A DNA stretch of 64,000 bases, taken from assembly GCA_050950285.1 (NCBI GenBank), contig JBMNHG010000004.1, positions 62,001 to 126,000 of the forward strand, written 5' to 3'. Under the pieces are notes generated by a model. The model made no database searches and had not been told where the DNA came from. It saw nothing but the letters and a program-made list of their open reading frames with translations. The stretch's first letter is position 1. Each line of letters begins with the position of its first letter. Below, piece after piece: positions 6,393 to 63,918 of this stretch. This stretch comes from Kiritimatiellia bacterium. Lineage in GTDB: Bacteria; Verrucomicrobiota; Kiritimatiellia; RFP12; JBMNHG01. Position numbers and translations under genes: made by a program.

Positions 6393-6510
6393 CCTGGGGA
6401 CCGCCGTCCCCGGCGGGCGGGATGCGTGGGCGGGCTTCCTGGGGACCGCCGTCCCCGGCGGGCTGGCTGGACGGCCTCCGTGTCGTCCGGCCGGGTTTTG
6501 CACGGGCCTC
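6393..6510. repeat. Degenerate copy of the REP-filled MITE-2 family: two direct copies of CCTGGGGACCGCCGTCCCCGGCGGGC plus a right-end-like GGGTTTTGCACGGGCCTC
   Basis: 26-bp direct repeats at 6393-6418 and 6438-6463; downstream sequence matches the 3' half of 9265-9404 and 26544-26640. Confidence 0.7.
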
Positions 6511-6515
6511 GCCTG

Positions 6516-7255: not shown

Positions 7256-8851
7256 CTACCAGTCGTCGGTGCGGAACGGGGAGGCGGGGAGGCCTTCCCG
7301 GTTGTAGAGGTTGCACTTGCCGAGCGGGTTCGCGCGGTAGGCGTAGCGCACGGCGACGGGGGCTTCGACCAGCGGGGAGGTCACGATCACGGTGTCGCCG
7401 TCGATCTGGGCGGTGGCCCATTGCCACTGGCGATCCTCGCCGGCGATGGCGAATCCCTCGATTTCGGTGCCTTCGGGGGCTTCGATCGGGGGGTCGTTGT
7501 CGAGGTGGTTCTTCATGCCGACCATCAGGCCGGAGCCGACGGAGTCGTCCTCGAAGGAGACGATGGCGCGGGCGCCGTCGATCTCGAGGCCCTTGAAGAG
7601 GGGTCCGGTGAAGACCACGTCCTGGCCGTAGTCTTTGGCGAGGGCCCACACGGCGAGGCGTTCGCCCACGTGCAGCTTCTCCTTCGGGTGGATGTCGCCG
7701 CCGTTGCCGATGTCGAGGGTCACGGCCATGCCGGTCTTCGGGACGCGGGCGAGGGTCTTGCGCTGGGCGTCGCGGATCCGGGCGTAGCCGTCGCCGCCGG
7801 CCGGGTTGTCGCTCTGGTTCATGAAGCTCGCGAGCTGCACGTAGTAGAAGGGGAAGTCGTACCCCCACACGGCGCGCCAGCCGAGGATGAGCGCCTCCAT
7901 CTTGTCGATGTACTCGTCGCCCTCGCCGCCGTTGGAGCAGCCCTGGTACCAGAGGGCGCCCTTGATGGCGTAGCGCACGAGCGGGGCGACCATCGCGTTG
8001 TACTGGGCGGTCCAGTCATGGCCGATCGAGGGGAATGCGGGCATCGCATCGGCCGGGCGGCCGCCGGCTTCGATGACGGGCCGGGTCTTCGCGACCCACT
8101 CCGCAATCGCGTCGAGGGTCTCCAGGGCCTTGGCACGGCCCGCCTCGGTGGCGGGGTCCGCGGCCTCGACGCCCGCGACGCGCGAGGCGATGTGCTCGGC
8201 TTCGACCGCCTTCATGCCCTCGACGCATGCGAACGGCTCGATGCGGCATCCGCTCCAGCTGTCGTCGATGAGCCCGATCGGCACGTCGAGTTCCTGGACG
8301 AGCTTGCGGGCGAAGAAGTAGCCGGTGGCGGTGACGCCGCCCCAGACGTCGGAGGCCTTGTTCCACTGGCGTTCGACGGGCGCCTCTTTCTGCGGGTAGT
8401 TGGCGATGACCTTCCGGATCTTCATGTTGCGGATGATGGGGAACCCGGCGGCCTCGGCCTGGAAGGTCTCCCCGCCGATGATGCCCCAGCCGAAGCTCAT
8501 CTCCATGTTCGACTGGCCGGAGCACAGCCAGACGTCGCCCACGAGAACGTTCTGCAGCGTCACCTCGTTCGCGGCGCCTTTGAGGAGGAGCGGACGATCC
8601 TCCTTCGAGGCGTCCATCGGCGCGAGGGTGACCTCCCAGTCGCCGGCGGCATCGGCTTCGGTGCGGACCGACTGCCCGTCGAAGACCACGGTGACGGGTT
8701 CGCCCGGATCGGCGGTACCCCAGATCTTGACCTCGCGGTCGCGCTGGAGGACCATGTTGTCGGAGAACATCGGCGAGGGTTTGACGGCGGCAAAGGCCGC
8801 TCCCGCGACGAACGAAAGGGCCACTGCGGCCGGGAACAGGCATTTCTTCAT
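7256..8851 (-). CDS. Exported sialate O-acetylesterase (SASA/SGNH family)
   Basis: Signal peptide MKKCLFPAAVAL; FSDNMVLQR, GDVWLCSGQSNM, LWYQG, DIHP, LYNREGLPASPFRTD motifs. Confidence 0.92.
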   Translation of the reverse strand: MKKCLFPAAVALSFVAGAAFAAVKPSPMFSDNMVLQRDREVKIWGTADPGEPVTVVFDGQSVRTEADAAGDWEVTLAPMDASKEDRPLLLKGAANEVTLQNVLVGDVWLCSGQSNMEMSFGWGIIGGETFQAEAAGFPIIRNMKIRKVIANYPQKEAPVERQWNKASDVWGGVTATGYFFARKLVQELDVPIGLIDDSWSGCRIEPFACVEGMKAVEAEHIASRVAGVEAADPATEAGRAKALETLDAIAEWVAKTRPVIEAGGRPADAMPAFPSIGHDWTAQYNAMVAPLVRYAIKGALWYQGCSNGGEGDEYIDKMEALILGWRAVWGYDFPFYYVQLASFMNQSDNPAGGDGYARIRDAQRKTLARVPKTGMAVTLDIGNGGDIHPKEKLHVGERLAVWALAKDYGQDVVFTGPLFKGLEIDGARAIVSFEDDSVGSGLMVGMKNHLDNDPPIEAPEGTEIEGFAIAGEDRQWQWATAQIDGDTVIVTSPLVEAPVAVRYAYRANPLGKCNLYNREGLPASPFRTDDW

Positions 8852-9095
8852 GGGGACATCCATCCAATCGGGTTCAATGCGCCACGGCACGCCGCGGAAG
8901 ACGGCATTCACCGGGGTGCGAAACTTTGGGGACAAGGATACGAAGACCGGGGCGGAATGTAAAGCGGCGAGTGTGTCTTTCCGGATTGGACGTCCTGCAA
9001 GAGAGCGCTGACGGCAGAGGCCGCGAAAACGTCCGACCAGTAATCGAGCGCACGGCGGTCGGTCTCCGCCGCCTGCACGGAATACCCAAGAAAGC

Positions 9096-9249
9096 TACTA
9101 ACTCGGCCACAATTCATACTGCAAAACAGGAGCACGGGTTTTCCAACCCGTGACACGGACAGGAATGTCCGTGCCCCTTTCCCAACTCCAAATTCCAGCT
9201 CCCAATGCCTAAATCCCCGCGCGCAGCGCTATTTGTGGCCGGGTTAGTA
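9096..9249. mobile_element. MITE-1 (154 bp including flanking TA), nested in unit E; further copies at 10863-11016, 12637-12790, 15976-16129 and 45595-45746
   Basis: Terminal inverted repeats TACTAACTCGGCCACAA / TTGTGGCCGGGTTAGTA (16/17 match); a solo copy occurs in unrelated context at 45595. Confidence 0.85.
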
Positions 9250-9264
9250 ATGGCAAAAAGAAAA

Positions 9265-9404
9265 GCGGCGCTTGCAGAACCCCTTGCGAAAACCGGTCGG
9301 GGCAGAGCCCGACCCTCCCGATCCCCCTTTGGGGACCGCCGTCCCCGGCGGGCTGGATGGAGGGACGACCTCCGTGTCGTCCGGCTGGGTTTTGCAAGAG
9401 CCTC
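9265..9404. mobile_element. MITE-2 (140-147 bp), nested in unit E; further copies at 11032-11178, 12806-12952 and 16145-16284, with a short solo copy at 26544-26640
   Basis: Imperfect TIRs GCGGCGCTTGCAGAACCC / GGGTTTTGCAAGAGCCTC (15/18); the same ends bound the 26544 copy; no target duplication seen. Confidence 0.65.
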
Positions 9405-9572
9405 GTTGGTGAAGCCGTCGCCGTCGGGATCGCCGTCCGCCCCGGTTTCCCGGTTTTCCGACGAAAGAGGAAACGGCTGGCCTGGCGAGTGGAGAGGGCA
9501 GTGCGGCGTGTGCGCAAGCAGACGCTGTGTTGCTGGCGTAGAGAGAGAGAGAATCGACGCAACCTGATACTG

Positions 9573-10508
9573 TCACATGGACAATGCTTCGCGCCAGATG
9601 ATCCACACTTGACCACTATCGATCCGACCCCCTAGACGATCTTGTTTTCTGATGATCGCAGCGGCGTTTTGTTTCACTGCCGTCCTGAACTCTTCGCGAT
9701 TCTCCGGCAACGCCCCCATTTTCTCTTTCATGGCCAGGCAGGCGGCAAGTGCGGATTTGCGGATTGAAAGGGTCGTGACCAACCATCCAACTTGGGCCGG
9801 ATCATAAGCAGCATAACACGCTTCGTAATCACCACCGGACCCGGGATAGACGGCGGACGTGCTGGCGTCCGCCTTGTCTTTCAAGAGCGTTTCAATGATC
9901 GCTGCAAGCCGGATGTAATCTGGATCGTTAGGGGTGCCGATGTTCGCGCTGTTGATCGGCTGCTTTTCCTGGTCGAGCATCTGTAGCCAATAGGCCGATG
10001 TCGGACTATCGCGGCAACATGCCTCGACACGCGGCCGAATCTGTTCAAGGTCACCGTCGGGAGCGGCCAGACTCCGCAACAAAAGGGTAACGGCGGTTTC
10101 TTCAGCGACAGATGCCAAGACAAGATTGCCATACGATTGCCTTTCCAGGCACCATGAACGGAGAGCCAGGGCATCATCGATGGCGTGAAGCTCCGAGCCG
10201 AACGGGAGCGCATTCAAGGAGGCGGTTTCTCTCAAAATGGCAAGGCCCAACTCTCGATCCTGCTGCACAAGCTTCCGTTTCTCCGGATCGGCAATCGCTT
10301 CGCAGGACTTGTTGCTTGGGATCGACAAGGGGGCCACGCGGTTTGTTTTGATCGCGTCAACAAAGCCCTTCAAGCCCTTGGCCTTCAGAAGTGCAAGTGT
10401 CGTGGCTCCCCCGTGATCGTTAGACCATGCATTGGCGCAAGCCAGCAGGAGAACCACGGCCGGCAACACGGCGGGCCTAAGGCAACGATATTCCAGACTT
10501 CTATTCAT
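9573..10508 (-). CDS. Hypothetical exported protein, 311 aa, copy 1 (possible immunity/partner protein)
   Basis: AAGGAG RBS, signal-peptide-like AVLPAVVLLLACANAWS, visibly lower GC than flanking genes, no recognisable motif. Confidence 0.8.
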   Translation of the reverse strand: MNRSLEYRCLRPAVLPAVVLLLACANAWSNDHGGATTLALLKAKGLKGFVDAIKTNRVAPLSIPSNKSCEAIADPEKRKLVQQDRELGLAILRETASLNALPFGSELHAIDDALALRSWCLERQSYGNLVLASVAEETAVTLLLRSLAAPDGDLEQIRPRVEACCRDSPTSAYWLQMLDQEKQPINSANIGTPNDPDYIRLAAIIETLLKDKADASTSAVYPGSGGDYEACYAAYDPAQVGWLVTTLSIRKSALAACLAMKEKMGALPENREEFRTAVKQNAAAIIRKQDRLGGRIDSGQVWIIWREALSM

Positions 10509-10520
10509 GTGAAGCTCCTT

Positions 10521-10739
10521 TCAGAAATCGTAATCCCAATCGCCAAATGTCTCTTGGAAAGTTACTCGGTCAAAGTATATGTTCCCGGCGTCACGTCCGG
10601 TGATACTTGGATCCCAGCCAATTTGAAGAACGGCCGCTTGGCCGGCAAAGCCACCGTCTTCGTAGTTGAAGTCATAGAGATCGTCTCAATGGTTGTTGAG
10701 CCATGCGGATTCCCATGTCCGAAAAGAAAAGCTGTTTGC
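10521..10739 (-). pseudogene. Headless C-terminal gene fragment upstream of the 311-aa gene, copy 1
   Basis: Reads ...WLNNH*DDLYDFNYEDGGFAGQAAVLQIGWDPSITGRDAGNIYFDRVTFQETFGDWDYDF*; its stop abuts the RBS of the next gene; cut off at unit E. Confidence 0.6.
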
Positions 10740-11267
10740 GTGTCTTTCCGGATTGGACGTCCTGCAAGAGAGCGCTGACGGCAGAGGCCGCAAAAACGTC
10801 CGACCAGTAATCGAGCGCACGGCGGTCGGTCTCCGCCGCCTGCACGGAATACCCAAGAAAGCTACTAACTCGGCCACAATTCATGCTGCAAAACAGGAGC
10901 ACGGGTTTTCCAACCCGTGACACGGACAGGAATGTCCGTGCCCCTTTCCCAACTCCAAATTCCAGCTCCCAATGCCTAAATCCCCGCGCGCAGCGCTATT
11001 TGTGGCCGGGTTAGTAATGGCAAAAAGAAAAGCGGCGCTTGCAGAACCCCCTTGCGCAAACCGGTCGGGGGCAGAGCAGAGCCCGACCCTCCCGATCCCC
11101 CTTTGGGGACCGCCGTCCCCGGCGGGCTGGATGGAGGGACGACCTCCGTGTCGTCCGGCTGGGTTTTGCAAGAGCCTCGTTGGTGAAGCCGTCGCCGTCG
11201 GGATCGCCGTCCGCCCCGGTTTCCCGGTTTTCCGACGAAAGAGGAAACGGCTGGCCTGGCGAGTGGA
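10740..11267. repeat. Composite repeat unit E, copy 2
   Basis: Near-identical to 8973-9493 with small indels and SNPs. Confidence 0.95.
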
Positions 11268-11346
11268 GAGGGCAGTGCGGCGTGTGCGCAAGCAGACGCT
11301 GTGTTGCTGGCGTAGAGAGAGAGAGAATCGACGCAACCTGATACTG

Positions 11347-12282
11347 TCACATGGACAATGCTTCGCGCCAGATGATCCACACTTGACCACTATCGATCCG
11401 ACCCCCTAGACGATCTTGTTTTCTGATGATCGCAGCGGCGTTTTGTTTCACTGCCGTCCTGAACTCTTCGCGATTCTCCGGCAACGCCCCCATTTTCTCT
11501 TTCATGGCCAGGCAGGCGGCAAGTGCGGATTTGCGGATTGAAAGGGTCGTGACCAACCATCCAACTTGGGCCGGATCATAAGCAGCATAACACGCTTCGT
11601 AATCACCACCGGACCCGGGATAGACGGCGGACGTGCTGGCGTCCGCCTTGTCTTTCAAGAGCGTTTCAATGATCGCTGCAAGCCGGATGTAATCTGGATC
11701 GTTAGGGGTGCCGATGTTCGCGCTGTTGATCGGCTGCTTTTCCTGGTCGAGCATCTGTAGCCAATAGGCCGATGTCGGACTATCGCGGCAACATGCCTCG
11801 ACACGCGGCCGAATCTGTTCAAGGTCACCGTCGGGAGCGGCCAGACTCCGCAACAAAAGGGTAACGGCGGTTTCTTCAGCGACAGATGCCAAGACAAGAT
11901 TGCCATACGATTGCCTTTCCAGGCACCATGAACGGAGAGCCAGGGCATCATCGATGGCGTGAAGCTCCGAGCCGAACGGGAGCGCATTCAAGGAGGCGGT
12001 TTCTCTCAAAATGGCAAGGCCCAACTCTCGATCCTGCTGCACAAGCTTCCGTTTCTCCGGATCGGCAATCGCTTCGCAGGACTTGTTGCTTGGGATCGAC
12101 AAGGGGGCCACGCGGTTTGTTTTGATCGCGTCAACAAAGCCCTTCAAGCCCTTGGCCTTCAGAAGTGCAAGTGTCGTGGCTCCCCCGTGATCGTTAGACC
12201 ATGCATTGGCGCAAGCCAGCAGGAGAACCACGGCCGGCAACACGGCGGGCCTAAGGCAACGATATTCCAGACTTCTATTCAT
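11347..12282 (-). CDS. Hypothetical exported protein, 311 aa, copy 2
   Basis: Translation identical to copy 1. Confidence 0.8.
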   Translation of the reverse strand: MNRSLEYRCLRPAVLPAVVLLLACANAWSNDHGGATTLALLKAKGLKGFVDAIKTNRVAPLSIPSNKSCEAIADPEKRKLVQQDRELGLAILRETASLNALPFGSELHAIDDALALRSWCLERQSYGNLVLASVAEETAVTLLLRSLAAPDGDLEQIRPRVEACCRDSPTSAYWLQMLDQEKQPINSANIGTPNDPDYIRLAAIIETLLKDKADASTSAVYPGSGGDYEACYAAYDPAQVGWLVTTLSIRKSALAACLAMKEKMGALPENREEFRTAVKQNAAAIIRKQDRLGGRIDSGQVWIIWREALSM

Positions 12283-12294
12283 GTGAAGCTCCTT

Positions 12295-12513
12295 TCAGAA
12301 ATCGTAATCCCAATCGCCAAATGTCTCTTGGAAAGTTACTCGGTCAAAGTATATGTTCCCGGCGTCACGTCCGGTGATACTTGGATCCCAGCCAATTTGA
12401 AGAACGGCCGCTTGGCCGGCAAAGCCACCGTCTTCGTAGTTGAAGTCATAGAGATCGTCTCAATGGTTGTTGAGCCATGCGGATTCCCATGTCCGAAAAG
12501 AAAAGCTGTTTGC
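12295..12513 (-). pseudogene. Headless C-terminal gene fragment, copy 2
   Basis: Same sequence as 10521-10739. Confidence 0.6.
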
Positions 12514-13041
12514 GTGTCTTTCCGGATTGGACGTCCTGCAAGAGAGCGCTGACGGCAGAGGCCGCAAAAACGTCCGACCAGTAATCGAGCGCACGGCGGT
12601 CGGTCTCCGCCGCCTGCACGGAATACCCAAGAAAGCTACTAACTCGGCCACAATTCATGCTGCAAAACAGGAGCACGGGTTTTCCAACCCGTGACACGGA
12701 CAGGAATGTCCGTGCCCCTTTCCCAACTCCAAATTCCAGCTCCCAATGCCTAAATCCCCGCGCGCAGCGCTATTTGTGGCCGGGTTAGTAATGGCAAAAA
12801 GAAAAGCGGCGCTTGCAGAACCCCCTTGCGCAAACCGGTCGGGGGCAGAGCAGAGCCCGACCCTCCCGATCCCCCTTTGGGGACCGCCGTCCCCGGCGGG
12901 CTGGATGGAGGGACGACCTCCGTGTCGTCCGGCTGGGTTTTGCAAGAGCCTCGTTGGTGAAGCCGTCGCCGTCGGGATCGCGGCCCGCCCCGGTTTCCCG
13001 GTTTTCCGACGAAAGACGAAACGGCTGGCCTGGCGAGTGGA
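12514..13041. repeat. Composite repeat unit E, copy 3
   Basis: Near-identical to the other copies. Confidence 0.95.
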
Positions 13042-13118
13042 GAGGGCAGTGCGGCGTGTGCGCAAGCAGACGCTGTGTTGCTGGCGTAGCGAGAGAGAAT
13101 CGACGCAACCTGATACTG

Positions 13119-14054
13119 TCACATGGACAATGCTTCGCGCCAGATGATCCACACTTGACCACTATCGATCCGACCCCCTAGACGATCTTGTTTTCTGATG
13201 ATCGCAGCGGCGTTTTGTTTCACTGCCGTCCTGAACTCTTCGCGATTCTCCGGCAACGCCCCCATTTTCTCTTTCATGGCCAGGCAGGCGGCAAGTGCGG
13301 ATTTGCGGATTGAAAGGGTCGTGACCAACCATCCAACTTGGGCCGGATCATAAGCAGCATAACACGCTTCGTAATCACCACCGGACCCGGGATAGACGGC
13401 GGACGTGCTGGCGTCCGCCTTGTCTTTCAAGAGCGTTTCAATGATCGCTGCAAGCCGGATGTAATCTGGATCGTTAGGGGTGCCGATGTTCGCGCTGTTG
13501 ATCGGCTGCTTTTCCTGGTCGAGCATCTGTAGCCAATAGGCCGATGTCGGACTATCGCGGCAACATGCCTCGACACGCGGCCGAATCTGTTCAAGGTCAC
13601 CGTCGGGAGCGGCCAGACTCCGCAACAAAAGGGTAACGGCGGTTTCTTCAGCGACAGATGCCAAGACAAGATTGCCATACGATTGCCTTTCCAGGCACCA
13701 TGAACGGAGAGCCAGGGCATCATCGATGGCGTGAAGCTCCGAGCCGAACGGGAGCGCATTCAAGGAGGCGGTTTCTCTCAAAATGGCAAGGCCCAACTCT
13801 CGCTCCTGCTGCACAAGCTTCCGTTTCTCCGGATCGGCAATCGCTTCGAAGGACTTGTTGCTTGGGATCGACAAGGGGGCCACGCGGTTTGTTTTGATCG
13901 CGTCAACAAAGCCCTTCAAGCCCTTGGCCTTCAGAAGTGCAAGTGTCGTGGCTCCCCCTTGATCGTTAGACCATGCATTGGCGCAAGCCAGCAGGAGAAC
14001 CACGGCCGGCAACACGGCGGGCCTAAGGCAACGATATTCCAGACTTCTATTCAT
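13119..14054 (-). CDS. Hypothetical exported protein, 311 aa, copy 3 (3 amino-acid substitutions)
   Basis: NDQGG, KSFEA and QQERE versus NDHGG, KSCEA and QQDRE in copies 1-2. Confidence 0.8.
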   Translation of the reverse strand: MNRSLEYRCLRPAVLPAVVLLLACANAWSNDQGGATTLALLKAKGLKGFVDAIKTNRVAPLSIPSNKSFEAIADPEKRKLVQQERELGLAILRETASLNALPFGSELHAIDDALALRSWCLERQSYGNLVLASVAEETAVTLLLRSLAAPDGDLEQIRPRVEACCRDSPTSAYWLQMLDQEKQPINSANIGTPNDPDYIRLAAIIETLLKDKADASTSAVYPGSGGDYEACYAAYDPAQVGWLVTTLSIRKSALAACLAMKEKMGALPENREEFRTAVKQNAAAIIRKQDRLGGRIDSGQVWIIWREALSM

Positions 14055-14066
14055 GTGAAGCTCCTT

Positions 14067-14285
14067 TCAGAAATCGTAATCCCAATCGCCAAATGTCTCT
14101 TGGAAAGTTACTCGGTCAAAGTATATGTTCCCGGCGTCACGTCCGGTGATACTTGGATCCCAGCCAATTTGAAGAACGGCCGCTTGGCCGGCAAAGCCAC
14201 CGTCTTCGTAGTTGAAGTCATAGAGATCGTCTCAATGGTTGTTGAGCCATGCGGATTCCCATGTCCGAAAAGAAAAGCTGTTTGC
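14067..14285 (-). pseudogene. Headless C-terminal gene fragment, copy 3
   Basis: Same sequence as 10521-10739. Confidence 0.6.
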
Positions 14286-14412
14286 GTGTCTTTCCGGATT
14301 GGACGTCCTGCAAGAGAGCGCTGACGGCAGAGGCCGCAAAAACGTCCGACCAGTAATCGAGCGCACGGCGGTCGGTCTCCGCCGCCTGCACGGAATACCC
14401 AAGAAAGCTACT

Positions 14413-15970
14413 CACTAGCATCCCATAGGCGGACCGGCAACCGGACGGTTCCCGCAGTTGGCACACTTTAGGGGCGGGGAGTTGCCTCTAAAGATTTTCA
14501 AAAAAGTGTCGGCTTCGGAGGCGTCTGCCTGTAACCTACAGGCATTATGAAAAAACGACTCCCCCAATTGCTTGGGTTCGCGCCTCCGAAACCGACGAAG
14601 ACAGTGTACACCGTGCTGCGGCAGCTCGTCCAGTGGATTCCCGCCGGGATGATCCAGCGGCTCGCCGAAGAGTATAAGCTCGACATCCGCAAGTGGTCGG
14701 CGGTGAGCCATGTGGTCGCGCTGATGTACGGCCAGCTCGCGGGCTGCGACAGCCTCAACGGGATCGTGGACGCGGCGCGCGTCCACGAGAGCGAGTGGCG
14801 CAACATCCGGGGGGCGCAGCCGCCGAAGCGCAACACGTTCTCCAACGCGAACCGGCACCGCGACGCGGCCATGGCCGAGCGGCTGTACTGGGAGGTCTTC
14901 GACCATCTGGTCACCGTCTGCCCGGGGTTCGGGCAGTACAAGAGGCACAAGGGCTTCCTCGCGCGGATGAAGCGCGGCATCTTCGCCATCGACTCCAGCA
15001 CGATCAAGCTGTGCCTGAACTGCATCGACTGGGCGCGGCACCGCAGGAAGAAGGCGGCGGCGAAGCTGCACATGAACCTCGACGTGGGCAGCCGCCTGCC
15101 CGCCGCCGTCGTCGTGGAGGACGCGGGCCACCACGACTCCACCCGCGCGAAGGCGCTCTGCGCCGGGCTGAAGGCGGGCGACGTGTGCCTCGCCGACCGT
15201 GCCTACACGGACTTCTCCTTCCTCGCCGACCTGCGGGCGCGCGGCATCTTCTTCGTGGTCAGGCAGAAAACGAACATGAAGTTCAAGCGCGTCAAGCGCC
15301 TGCCGGAGAGCCGGGACGCGGGCATCGTCGGCGACGAACTCGTCGAGCCCGCCCTCGCCCGCTCCAAAAAGCTCTATCCCGTCCCCCTGCGCCGCGTGAC
15401 CGCGAACGTCGAGGTGAACGGCAAGATGAAGGAGATGACTTTCCTGACGAACAACCTCGACTGGAGCGCGCGCACCATCGCGGAACTGTACCGGGCGCGG
15501 TGGGCCGTCGAGCTGTTCTTCAAGGAAATCAAGCAGACCTGCCAGATCCGCGACTTCGTAGGGTACAACGAGAACGCGGTCAAGTGGCAGATCTGGACGG
15601 GGATGCTCGTGCATCTCCTGCTGCGGTTCATGAGCCATGTCGCGGACTGGAAGCTGAGCTTCTCGCGCCTCGCGGGCGTCGCGCGCGCGGCGGTGTGGGT
15701 CAAGCGCGACCTGATTGAGATGCTCAAAATCTATGGGACAGCACCGCGGCCAAAACCGGGTGAATCCCGCGAAAAACCCCCGCCCATACAGGCCTTTTTC
15801 GATTTCTGGCGGCTCGACTATGGGACAGCAGGGCCGTAAAACCCAGTAAAAACGCGAAACGGCCGGTCGCTCCGGGAAAACCTCAAACCTGAAACCACAA
15901 AAAAGACATCAAAAACCCAAGCAAATCCGCATGGGTAAGGGTGAATTGTGCCGCCTATGGGATGCTAGTG
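14413..15970 (+). mobile_element. Complete IS4-family insertion sequence, 1558 bp
   Basis: Perfect 20-bp TIR CACTAGCATCCCATAGGCGG; 9-bp target duplication AAAGCTACT at 14404-14412 and 15971-15979. Confidence 0.95.
14547..15839 (+). CDS. IS4-family DDE transposase (DUF4372-type N-terminus)
   Basis: AIDSSTI, ADRAY and YRARWAVELFFKEIKQ (YREK) motifs. Confidence 0.95.
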   Translation: MKKRLPQLLGFAPPKPTKTVYTVLRQLVQWIPAGMIQRLAEEYKLDIRKWSAVSHVVALMYGQLAGCDSLNGIVDAARVHESEWRNIRGAQPPKRNTFSNANRHRDAAMAERLYWEVFDHLVTVCPGFGQYKRHKGFLARMKRGIFAIDSSTIKLCLNCIDWARHRRKKAAAKLHMNLDVGSRLPAAVVVEDAGHHDSTRAKALCAGLKAGDVCLADRAYTDFSFLADLRARGIFFVVRQKTNMKFKRVKRLPESRDAGIVGDELVEPALARSKKLYPVPLRRVTANVEVNGKMKEMTFLTNNLDWSARTIAELYRARWAVELFFKEIKQTCQIRDFVGYNENAVKWQIWTGMLVHLLLRFMSHVADWKLSFSRLAGVARAAVWVKRDLIEMLKIYGTAPRPKPGESREKPPPIQAFFDFWRLDYGTAGP

Positions 15971-16396
15971 AAAGCTACTAACTCGGCCACAATTCATGCT
16001 GCAAAACAGGAGCACGGGTTTTCCAACCCGTGACACGGACAGGAATGTCCGTGCCCCTTTCCCAACTCCAAATTCCAGCTCCCAATGCCTAAATCCCCGC
16101 GCGCAGCGCTATTTGTGGCCGGGTTAGTAATGGCAAAAAGAAAAGCGGCGCTTGCAGAACCCCTTGCGAAAACCGGTCGGGGCAGAGCCCGACCCTCCCG
16201 ATCCCCCTTTGGGGACCGCCGTCCCCGGCGGGCTGGATGGAGGGACGACCTCCGTGTCGTCCGGCTGGGTTTTGCAAGAGCCTCGTTGGTGAAGCCGTCG
16301 CCGTCGGGATCGCGGCCCGCCCCGGTTTCCCGGTTTTCCGACGAAAGACGAAACGGCTGGCCTGGCGAGTGGAAGAGGGGCATAATGCATCCCGCC

Positions 16397-61554: not shown

Positions 61555-63918
61555 ATGGGCAAGGAAGACCGGAAACATCCCCTGAGGGAGGATTCATCGA
61601 AAAAACGGCGCGCCGCTTTTGGATGGGCGGCGGCGCTGGCGGGGGGGGTGTGCCTTTGGGCGCTCTTCACCTGGCCCGTCCCGCGCCTCTTTGCATCGGG
61701 CATTCCGTCGAGCCATCGCACGGAGGACGTGCGCGTGGACCGTGTGCTGGTCCCGGGCGACCACCTCCAGCTTCTCTACCACTTCTGGCTGGCGCGCGAC
61801 ATGATCGTCGGCGGCACGCCCGCCTTCGCGAATGTGTACGAGTTCAACACCGACTCCACCGATCCGGCGGAGGAGGTCCGTCGCGTCCGCCGCATCGATC
61901 CCTTCTACGCGCCCTTCTCGCTGGTCTACGCCGCAATCTCCCCCTGGGCGGGCGATGCGGCGGGCTGGAACAGCGCGGCGCTTCTCTCCGTGCTGCTGGG
62001 CGTGGCCGGGCTCTTCGCCCTCGCAAGGCGGTACACGGCTTCGAGCACCTCCGCCTTCCTGGCCACGCTGGTCGCCACCGCCTTTCCCTACCGCTGGATC
62101 ACGCTGCTCGCCGGCAGTCCGACCGGTTTCGCCATGGGGCTTGCCCCGTTCGTGCCGCTTGGGCTGGACATCGCCGTGCGCGACCGGCGCATGCTGGGCG
62201 GGTGGCTGGCGGGCGTCGCGCTGCTGCTGTGCTATTGCTCGGATTTGCACGTCTATTATTTCTCCGCCCTGTCCGCGCCCCTGTGGTGCCTTTTTTCGTG
62301 GTTGTGCCGCCATGGCGGCGACGCCTCCCATGAAGCGCGCGAAGCCCCTGCGGGCCTCGCCGCTTTCCTTCGTTCCCTCCTCCCGGCGCTGCGCGCCCTT
62401 TTGCCGGCGATCGGCCTGGCGCTGCTGACGGTGGTGGCGGGAGCGTGGATGAACCGGCAGTTCGCCGGAACGGACATGTCGGGCGGACGCACCTGGAACG
62501 AGGTGATGCTCTATTCCGCAAAGGCGGCCAACCTCTTCGTGCAGGGCGGGAAAGGGATGGGCAGCCACCTTTTCCTGACGGTTTCGCTCGGCGCCCTGCT
62601 TGCCCTCTGTCTCGGTTGCGCGCTCGCCTATCCGCGGGATCTTCGCGCCAACTGCCTCGCACCGCGCACGAACCCCTATGTTCTTGTCGCGCTCCTTTTC
62701 GTGGCGATGGCGGGGGTGGTCTGCCTCGCGCTCGGTTCGAACGGCCCGGCGGGCGGCCTCGCGATGAAGCTGGCGCGGGCGGTTGTCCCCAAATACACGA
62801 TGATCCGGCAGGCGGTGAAGATCTATTGCCTGATGCCTGCCCTCATCGCCGTGGCGCTTGCGCTTCTGCTGCCACGCCGCCGCCAGCATCCGGGCGTGTT
62901 TCTTGTGGCGCTCCTCCTTTCCGTCCTGATGGTGCAAGAGGCGAAGTCCGGCATTCGCCCCGCCCTTTCGCTCCTGCCGCGCGAACAGGCCGCCTACCGG
63001 GCCATTGCGGAGGACGCGGCGAAACGGGGCGTCGTCCCCCACGCCCTCTGCCTTCCGCTCTGGCCGGGGGATTCGCATTGGTCGTCGCTGAACCTCCATG
63101 GGGCGATGAACACGCGCGTGCGCCTCGTGAACGGATACAATCCCGCCCGCCGCGACGAATATGTGGAGACGGTCTTCCGCTTCTACGAGAGCGCGAACGA
63201 AGGCTTCCTTTCCGACGAGCAGCTCGACCGGCTGCTCGCTTCGGGCGTGGACTACATCGTGCTCCACGAGGACGCCTTCCCCGAGAAGGTCTCCCCTTGG
63301 CCGGCTTCCGTCACGCTCCGCCGCCTTTTCGAAAATCGCCGCCTTGTCCCCATGCCGTACGCCGCAGGAGGCAGGGCCTGGACCTTCCGGATCGCGGGAC
63401 ATCCGTCGCCGGAAGGCGCGGACCGGACGCTGTGGACGCCGACCGTCCTCTCCGCCTCGCCGGGCTGCCGCAAGAAGTCCCCAGACGATCCTCCGCCCCT
63501 TCCGGACGAATCCGGACGCTACGTCTTCGCGGCGGCCGACCTCTTCCACGCCGGCGAAACCGTCCCCGAAGACGGTTCGGTCCGCCTCGATCCGGATCGC
63601 GACCCTGTCGGGGCCATCGTCTACGGACCCCACCGCGCGGTGCGTCCCGGCCGTTATCACGTCGAACTGGACTTCGCGGTGGACGCTTCCGTCCCCGCCG
63701 GGGAGAGGGTGGGGGAGCTCCGGGTGCGCATGGCCGAAGGCGACGTGCTCGCGTCGGAGCCCGTCGTTTCGGGGCGGCGCTGCGTCACGCCCGCCGCGAC
63801 TCTCGACGACGCTCCGCTGCGTCTGGAGTTCCTCTACGGATGCCCGGTGCGGGAGGGTGCGCTGCGCCCCGTCGCGCCGATCGTACTGCGCACCTTTTCC
63901 CTGGTCCCGGCGGACTGA
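61555..63918 (+). CDS. Polytopic membrane protein, GT-C/YfhO-like glycosyltransferase
   Basis: Many TM helices, GDHLQLLYHFW loop, RLVNGYNP, GVDYIVLH; start taken at MGKED. Confidence 0.65.
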   Translation: MGKEDRKHPLREDSSKKRRAAFGWAAALAGGVCLWALFTWPVPRLFASGIPSSHRTEDVRVDRVLVPGDHLQLLYHFWLARDMIVGGTPAFANVYEFNTDSTDPAEEVRRVRRIDPFYAPFSLVYAAISPWAGDAAGWNSAALLSVLLGVAGLFALARRYTASSTSAFLATLVATAFPYRWITLLAGSPTGFAMGLAPFVPLGLDIAVRDRRMLGGWLAGVALLLCYCSDLHVYYFSALSAPLWCLFSWLCRHGGDASHEAREAPAGLAAFLRSLLPALRALLPAIGLALLTVVAGAWMNRQFAGTDMSGGRTWNEVMLYSAKAANLFVQGGKGMGSHLFLTVSLGALLALCLGCALAYPRDLRANCLAPRTNPYVLVALLFVAMAGVVCLALGSNGPAGGLAMKLARAVVPKYTMIRQAVKIYCLMPALIAVALALLLPRRRQHPGVFLVALLLSVLMVQEAKSGIRPALSLLPREQAAYRAIAEDAAKRGVVPHALCLPLWPGDSHWSSLNLHGAMNTRVRLVNGYNPARRDEYVETVFRFYESANEGFLSDEQLDRLLASGVDYIVLHEDAFPEKVSPWPASVTLRRLFENRRLVPMPYAAGGRAWTFRIAGHPSPEGADRTLWTPTVLSASPGCRKKSPDDPPPLPDESGRYVFAAADLFHAGETVPEDGSVRLDPDRDPVGAIVYGPHRAVRPGRYHVELDFAVDASVPAGERVGELRVRMAEGDVLASEPVVSGRRCVTPAATLDDAPLRLEFLYGCPVREGALRPVAPIVLRTFSLVPAD

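Follow-up and report, generated by a model that had tools for sequence, protein, structure and literature searches.

The 64,000-nucleotide (nt) window examined here (positions 62,001 to 126,000 of contig JBMNHG010000004.1, Kiritimatiellia bacterium assembly GCA_050950285.1) carries an array in which a ~520-bp direct repeat (E) alternates with a lower-GC segment (G) in the order E-G-E-G-E-G-E. The array is real, consisting of three 1.77-kb units and a fourth E, and it probably arose when a single 1.77-kb piece of a polymorphic toxin/immunity locus that had collapsed was amplified in tandem to ~3.3 copies. The only intact gene of the unit encodes a 311-aa protein which, judging from gene order, probably serves in the periplasm as an orphan immunity protein, directed at a colicin M-like toxin that attacks cell-wall precursors.

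Layout of the array

The units start at 8973, 10740 and 12514, with lengths of 1767, 1774 and 1772 bp, and the fourth E begins at 14286 (Table 1). An initial annotation, made from the sequence alone, had described four E of ~520 bp and three G of ~1.25 kb without a transposase or integrase; starts and layout were recovered and the repeating unit is indeed free of a transposase, but the fourth E is split by an IS4-family insertion sequence (IS) that had been overlooked. G (1241 bp) has a GC fraction of 0.549 against 0.618 in E and 0.67-0.68 in the flanking genes, in keeping with its earlier description as lower in GC and foreign-looking, and the array does lie between two divergent ordinary genes, a minus-strand SASA acetylesterase (PF03629) and a plus-strand GT2 glycosyltransferase (PF00535). 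The copies had been said to differ enough to make an assembly duplication unlikely; a simple assembly duplication is indeed not what is seen, but only 19 of 1774 alignment columns vary among the three units, G1 is identical to G2, and all six variable G columns are private to G3. The fourth E is a mosaic of E1-type and E3-type variants.

Table 1. Features of the array, in window coordinates; features internal to the unit are given for the first copy
Feature	Position	Strand	Basis or remark
8-bp word m at the left joint	8966..8973	+	recurs at 9484, 11258, 13032 and 16364; apparent insertion-site duplication
E1	8973..9498		apparently the unit's terminal redundancy; holds the immunity-gene remnant, the MITE, the REP-like composite, the TSP3-type fragment and the motif start
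Remnant of immunity-like gene i2, apparently internally deleted	8973..9093	-	copies 2-4 extend into G to 10705 and equivalents; homology to P0028
MITE	9094..9250		~155 bp; has terminal inverted repeats and a TA at either end; sits in a TA near codon 10 of i2 (compared with L025)
REP/REPIN-like palindromic composite	9260..9405		67 genome matches; fold z = -3.3, equalled by 1 of 200 shuffles
DPDGDG (TSP3-type) repeat fragment of a secreted toxin-like gene	9406..9444	-	39 nt; 94.9% and 89.7% to C3:29039 and C3:39952
Decayed non-coding motif copy	9467..9563	-	spans the E/G border at 9498; elsewhere follows genes of toxin/immunity-type loci
311-aa ORF, copy 1, intact; candidate immunity protein	9573..10508	-	signal-peptide-like N-terminus; all-helical
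C-terminal 54 codons, lacking a start, of a gene for a secreted DxYD-domain protein (colicin M-like?)	10524..10685	-	C-terminal homology
End of another toxin-like gene	10672..10715	-	89% over 47 nt to C3:38695-38741; fused to the stub via 13/14-nt microhomology
E2	10740..11272		copy alignment
311-aa ORF, copy 2	11347..12282	-	identical to copy 1
E3	12514..13046		copy alignment
311-aa ORF, copy 3	13119..14054	-	three substitutions, all protein-changing: H32Q, C69F, D84E
E4, left part	14286..14412		copy alignment
IS4-family insertion sequence	14413..15970	+	1558 bp; transposase 14547-15839; splits E4
E4, right part	15971..16379		E1-/E3-type mosaic; its end imperfectly matches sequence upstream of the glycosyltransferase

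Composition of the unit

Read on the minus strand, the unit comprises the DPDGDG fragment, a repetitive extragenic palindrome (REP)-like composite, a miniature transposable element with inverted repeats (MITE), the gene remnant i2, a 44-nt end of a toxin-like gene, a 54-codon stub, the 311-aa open reading frame (ORF) and a non-coding motif. By homology it appears to be a collapsed polymorphic-toxin locus, made of gene scraps joined at microhomologies and retaining one intact gene. The stub shares 83%, 83% and 74% amino-acid identity with the C-termini of long ORFs that lie upstream of homologues of the 311-aa gene at three loci (L020, L022 and L021, respectively; L and G numbers denote the loci and genomes of this analysis).

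Both borders between E and G fall within older, continuous sequence. Across the left border at 10740, positions 10705-10792 are 90.9% identical over 88 nt to the 3' end of the gene for the 328-aa protein P0028 (locus L025, genome G272), and positions 10788-10864 are 89.6% identical over 77 nt to the 5' end of the same gene, where the two parts lie ~775 nt apart. Because the left end of E and the right end of G match the two ends of one gene, they would represent a single gene with a ~775-nt internal deletion at a 5-nt microhomology. At the right border, positions 9484-9563 match the non-coding motif in three genomes (G300, G155 and G166) at 78-82%, in an alignment that crosses 9498 back to ~9467. 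The initial description of E as a MITE/REP composite thus fits its core, but its leftmost ~120 bp and rightmost ~90 bp consist of gene and motif remnants that run on into G, and the MITE ends, 120 and 250 bp inside E, are not breakpoints.

In a search of the whole genome (4.05 Mb in 12 contigs, cited as C1, C2 and so on, with the window on C4), the first 120 bp and last ~50 bp of E were found four times and G three times, all inside the array, as were the only four matches of the MITE+REP core over 175 nt. Since both borders lie inside older continuous sequence and the full E is present only here, E would be the overlap left by slightly more than a whole number of 1.77-kb rounds, that is, the terminal redundancy of a circularly permuted unit, and would never itself have been a unit.

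The MITE alone has 95 matches in the genome, 51 of them full-length, and a scan for longer terminal-inverted-repeat pairs of 400-4000 bp returned no autonomous partner. A 97% identical copy is present in a genome from another family of the same order (L005, G040:C37:1421-1571), suggesting recent horizontal spread of the MITE. Window positions 6395-6511, 2.5 kb upstream of the array, hold a further REP-like cluster akin to that in E. A promoter scan returned two sites against 0.7 expected, none identified for the 311-aa gene and one inside its ORF.

The 311-aa protein family and its gene order

The 311-aa protein has ten close relatives (35-100% identity), matches 80 representative clusters at E<=0.001, and has matches in 19 of 401 genomes of the class. 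Gene order was examined at 30 loci in 28 distinct places, the own-genome loci and one duplicate being set aside. In 18 of the 30, four of which had helped to build the search profile, an ORF with the same C-terminal domain as the stub stands directly upstream of the family member, and the sequence DxYD is visible in 17; the other 12 have no toxin ORF within the retrieved flanks, which at 1.5 kb cut several of them short. Two or more family members stand in tandem in 7 of the 28 places, and one locus (L098) runs toxin, partner, broken toxin fragment, partner. In the own genome, three distant paralogues on C6 and two on C8 follow intact genes containing DLYDF (E 8e-7 to 0.075). Other polymorphic toxin-like loci, in which exported proteins with TSP3 repeats and variable C-termini are accompanied by partner genes in tandem, were noted at C6:48270-56026, C8:544207-548553, C8:160-172 kb, C3:25-41 kb and C2:801-815 kb.

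The array itself shows the arrangement that marks an orphan toxin/immunity module, namely the C-terminal end of a toxin gene without its start and, directly behind it, an intact partner whose relatives elsewhere come after full-length genes. The immunity role is considered likely because this gene order is that of polymorphic toxin/immunity pairs and orphan modules, as they are described in PMC3150448. The predicted structure of the protein is all-helical and confident (pLDDT 89.7). No specific match came from fold searches, in which the lowest Foldseek E was 0.28 and the highest Z was 9.8, against designed helical repeats, a score that is not meaningful for a helical bundle; there was no match in the PDB and no usable match in the ESM Atlas. 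Neither the protein nor the partner domain matched Pfam or NCBIfam. A relationship between the 311-aa family and i2 was weak in profile comparison (probability 7%), and a larger profile matched i2 at E 1.1e-5. Our literature search found no report of this toxin/partner family in Kiritimatiellia and no earlier report of an array of this type, and the family, a DxYD domain paired with an exported helical protein of 311 aa, is apparently undescribed.

There are hints of selection on the partner gene, because it alone outlived the collapse, and of relaxed constraint, because every change in copy 3 alters the protein and one falls at a conserved cysteine: C69, changed to F, is nearly invariant in the family alignment (A1). 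The numbers are too small to decide.

The DxYD partner domain

Colicin M-family structures (ColM, PaeM, pectocin M and syringacin M) occupied the first 13 Foldseek rows for the modelled partner domain (pLDDT 64), with a best E of 2.7e-3 and none at <=0.001. Alignment with pectocin M2 gave Z 6.2 (rmsd 3.8, 111 aligned) and CdiA-CT tied at Z 6.1; in the wide fold search of the domain colicin M-family structures were not at the top, and a sequence-profile search of the PDB returned 0 matches. DxYD is invariant in the 14 aligned partner-domain sequences. According to PMC5821083, ColM domains recruit unrelated periplasmic or membrane immunity proteins. The system resembles the colicin M family as described there in its DxYD and in its best Foldseek rows, and differs in the missing HR at the signature position, the weak fold match and a helical partner without a Pfam, NCBIfam or PDB match. 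The partner domain may work like a ColM-type enzyme, and it is not filed here as a member of the colicin M family.

Origin of the array

The preferred reading proceeds in four steps. A multi-pair toxin-immunity stretch would first have gained the MITE and the REP-like sequence and shrunk at microhomologies of 5-14 nt, leaving the 311-aa gene intact; the homologies of the parts are observed, and the order of events is conjectural. A piece of it, as a tandem or a circle in which both E/G joints were native to the donor, may then have entered between the promoters of the acetylesterase and the glycosyltransferase as at least 1.3 rounds, via short imperfect homologies and with duplication of an 8-bp word, the extra part-round becoming E. 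The 520-bp direct repeats then permit unequal homologous recombination and gene conversion, by which copy number changes and variants are shuffled, and an IS4 element later entered E4. The three copies of the 311-aa gene may raise its dose, with drift as the alternative.

The joints are consistent with such an insertion. The 8-bp word is present at the left joint and at the right ends of all four E, the chance of finding the joint 8-mer among the last 31 bases of E4 being 0.0009 per offset, or 0.0045 for five offsets, as calculated post hoc. Beyond the word, the right flank resembles the start of G save for two single-base gaps; over ~20 nt, the left flank can be loosely aligned with the donor continuation. 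The insertion would have spared a promoter-like site of the acetylesterase at 8935-8963. Deletion joints within the unit show 5-14-nt microhomology, and no special machinery is needed, because near-identical tandem arrays are common in this genome.

Examples of such repeats include a tandem array with a period of 559 bp at C11:239124-241129 (L017), whose ~3.6 copies each hold the same MITE and an inverted REP-like sequence and whose end coincides exactly with that of a MITE; part of the MITE repeated in tandem as six 100%-identical copies of 121 bp at C6:188999-189730; 4.9-kb near-identical gene repeats at C2:801-814 kb; and repeats with a period of ~1939 bp at C8:817274-824963, carrying reverse-transcriptase-like ORFs that by eye resemble group II intron proteins.

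Several observations weigh against this reading. An empty site was not found in 40 relatives, and neither an empty-site nor a single-copy allele appeared in the contigs of the sequencing runs described below, which break at the MITE, with 213 loose ends outside view; the second step is accordingly put forward as conjecture. The congeneric genome G001 has different neighbours on both sides of the flanking genes and is uninformative on the empty site. The 8-bp match was noticed post hoc, and contig depth is a crude measure, with two of the runs shallow. As to the nature of the genes, 12 of the 30 family loci lack a toxin ORF in the retrieved flanks, four of the 18 positive loci took part in profile construction, and the three protein-altering changes in copy 3, one at a conserved cysteine, fit relaxed selection. 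The colicin M match is weak (E 2.7e-3, TM 0.27, Z 5.1-6.2) and tied with unrelated folds, and in none of the 14 aligned partner-domain sequences does HR stand at the spacing of the DxYDx5HR signature given in PMC5821083.

An unlikely alternative shares the parts and the amplification mechanism of the preferred reading and dispenses with a circular or tandem donor. A whole toxin/immunity island would have inserted, decayed in place and duplicated to G-E-G-E, after which the first G was deleted, the 8-bp word being a leftover of the motif or a chance match. All joints are of the microhomology type, ordinary duplication and deletion would suffice, and tandem arrays are common in the genome. However, under local decay the left end would need a pair of breakpoints separated by 8 bp, and no trace of island sequence remains between the acetylesterase promoter-like site and position 8966.

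The downstream motif and a possible cassette system

The motif behind the 311-aa gene was found in pieces in 21 of 301 genomes of the class, conserved at 83-98% in those pieces across several families, and at 18 of 23 loci the end of an ORF in the same orientation falls between -260 and +60 nt relative to it, frequently within toxin/immunity regions of the Rhs or TSP3 type. At the motif loci (L029:1350-1590, L035-L063) it is modular, GC-rich and non-coding, and contains GTAG. Its modules and variable ends resemble REP mosaics, and the motif may be REP-like; at two loci the sequence downstream begins what we take, by eye, to be a REP-associated transposase. Rfam gave no match at E<=1 for four loci, in a search made without an attC-specific model. 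A reading of the motif as attC was dropped when the core ends, compared by eye with the consensus, did not match.

Very unlikely, in our estimation, is the broadest form of a cassette hypothesis, in which the motif is the site of an undescribed system that excises and re-integrates immunity modules, and the array a cassette, reduced to its immunity gene, that was amplified under pressure from a colicin M-like toxin to give copy-number-tuned immunity. Marginally less credible again is the mechanistic version, with the motif as a recombination site like those of integrons or of the recombinase-associated acquired interbacterial defence (rAID) clusters, and the unit as a cassette that was excised, went into a degenerate site and then multiplied. 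The conservation of the motif, its position behind co-oriented ORFs and the fact that the duplicated 8-bp word is part of it speak for such a system. However, the motif has modular structure and variable ends, stands beside only 1 of the 30 family loci, and in the window is decayed, folding no better than shuffled sequence (z 0.07). No recombinase was found near the array, the two tyrosine recombinases of the genome (PF00589) being on C1 and C3, and the left joint drops G, which a clean cassette integration would keep.

Copy number in public metagenomes

Contigs of four public runs (X11, X13, X14 and X16) were placed on positions 7900-10739, with contig depth as a crude measure of copy number. 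In X11, possibly the source sample, one error-free contig spans G at a depth of 97.7 against 38 for the flank contig, a ratio of 2.6, and the left part of E reaches 3.4 times the flank depth. Two shallow runs from other studies gave G depths of 15.7 against 4.73 (X13, ratio 3.3) and ~10.2 against 5-6.4 (X14, ratio 1.6-2); X16 yielded contigs without flank coverage. All four of the runs lend support to a genuine multi-copy state. G thus stands at ~1.6-3.3 times flank depth in contigs from three studies, and the amplification is seen in digester, bioreactor and landfill samples. A difference in copy number between populations is suggested and no more, because contig depth is crude and two of the runs are shallow.

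Copy-specific variants occur in new combinations. In X13 an E1-type right end is joined to a G3-type G start, in X14 an E3-type right end is joined to a G1-type start, and X16 carries two of the G3 substitutions. Together with the mosaic E4, these combinations support the earlier proposal that the direct repeats can let the array expand and contract.

It is highly improbable that assembly merely strung one- or two-copy strain variants into three. The identity of G1 and G2, the absence of G3-type variants from the X11 contig and the low ratio in X14 would fit such inflation, but the ratios found for the deepest run (2.6) and for X13 (3.3), the elevated depth of the left part of E in X11, and the G-to-E junction present in contigs of both X14 and X16 would not.

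The proposal of E as a portable element

Scarcely credible, and largely refuted, is the model of the initial annotation, in which G was captured by E, a non-autonomous MITE/REP composite acting as a portable site for homology or recombination: the E-G-E-G-E-G-E layout, the abundance of the MITE and the C11 array that ends exactly at a MITE end are in its favour, but E is unique to this locus, its borders cut a gene and a motif that extend into G, and the MITE ends are internal. The annotation had itself named the absence of E elsewhere and beside other cargo as grounds for refutation, and in this genome E was found at no other site and next to no other cargo. Nor is this a MITE-flanked composite, as the cargo borders do not coincide with MITE ends and cut gene and motif remnants instead. 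E is a by-product of insertion and amplification and not a new kind of mobile cassette.

The IS4 element

The insertion in E4 is a member of the IS4 family, with an intact DDE transposase of 430 aa (NF033592, 243 bits against a cut-off of 115), perfect terminal inverted repeats and a 9-bp target duplication (14404-14412 and 15971-15979). Four further copies lie elsewhere in the genome at 96-99.9% identity, and the 9-bp duplication was present in three of four copies checked. IS4-type ends directly abut MITE ends at C2:854115 and C3:58281 also, and in E4 the element sits at the left end of the MITE; the IS may favour MITE ends.

Relation to known systems

Orphan modules of contact-dependent inhibition (CDI) and Rhs loci, as presented in PMC3150448 and PMC3967940, pair a toxin C-terminal fragment that lacks a start with an intact partner gene behind it, and such loci undergo IS disruption and within-locus duplication and recombination. 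The array shares the stub with its intact partner, the IS disruption and the duplication and recombination. In contrast, its toxin fragment is only 54 codons long, the module lies away from a full-length toxin gene, the repeats are near-identical, and the carriers are TSP3-repeat exported proteins, not CdiA or Rhs. The acquired interbacterial defence (AID) and rAID-1 clusters of Bacteroidales, as described in 10.1101/471110, are similar in their relocated orphan immunity genes of skewed GC and repeated intergenic sequence; here, however, there is no XerD-like recombinase at the head, one gene is repeated instead of many, and protection is putative.

The likeness to IS26 units and integron cassettes suggested earlier proved to be one of layout only. 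Arrays and translocatable units of IS26 (PMC7986276) likewise alternate repeat and gene and may amplify by direct-repeat recombination, whereas the repeat flanking G is not an IS, holds no transposase ORF or common terminal repeats and is absent elsewhere; the sole IS lies inside E4.

Duplication-amplification between direct repeats leaves n units plus one terminal repeat, mosaic copies and a variable copy number. The array differs from the usual case in that the repeat would have been made by the insertion itself, and not by a resident IS or rRNA operon. Both orphan immunity genes and direct-repeat amplification are already known, and the array is an amplified orphan immunity-like gene.

Its interest is that a single orphan immunity-like gene has been amplified, in an array that is young and still being shuffled, within a class in which the partner gene of an apparently undescribed family has repeatedly been multiplied in tandem. 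If the partner protects in a dose-dependent manner, the array would be a natural case of amplification-tuned interbacterial defence.

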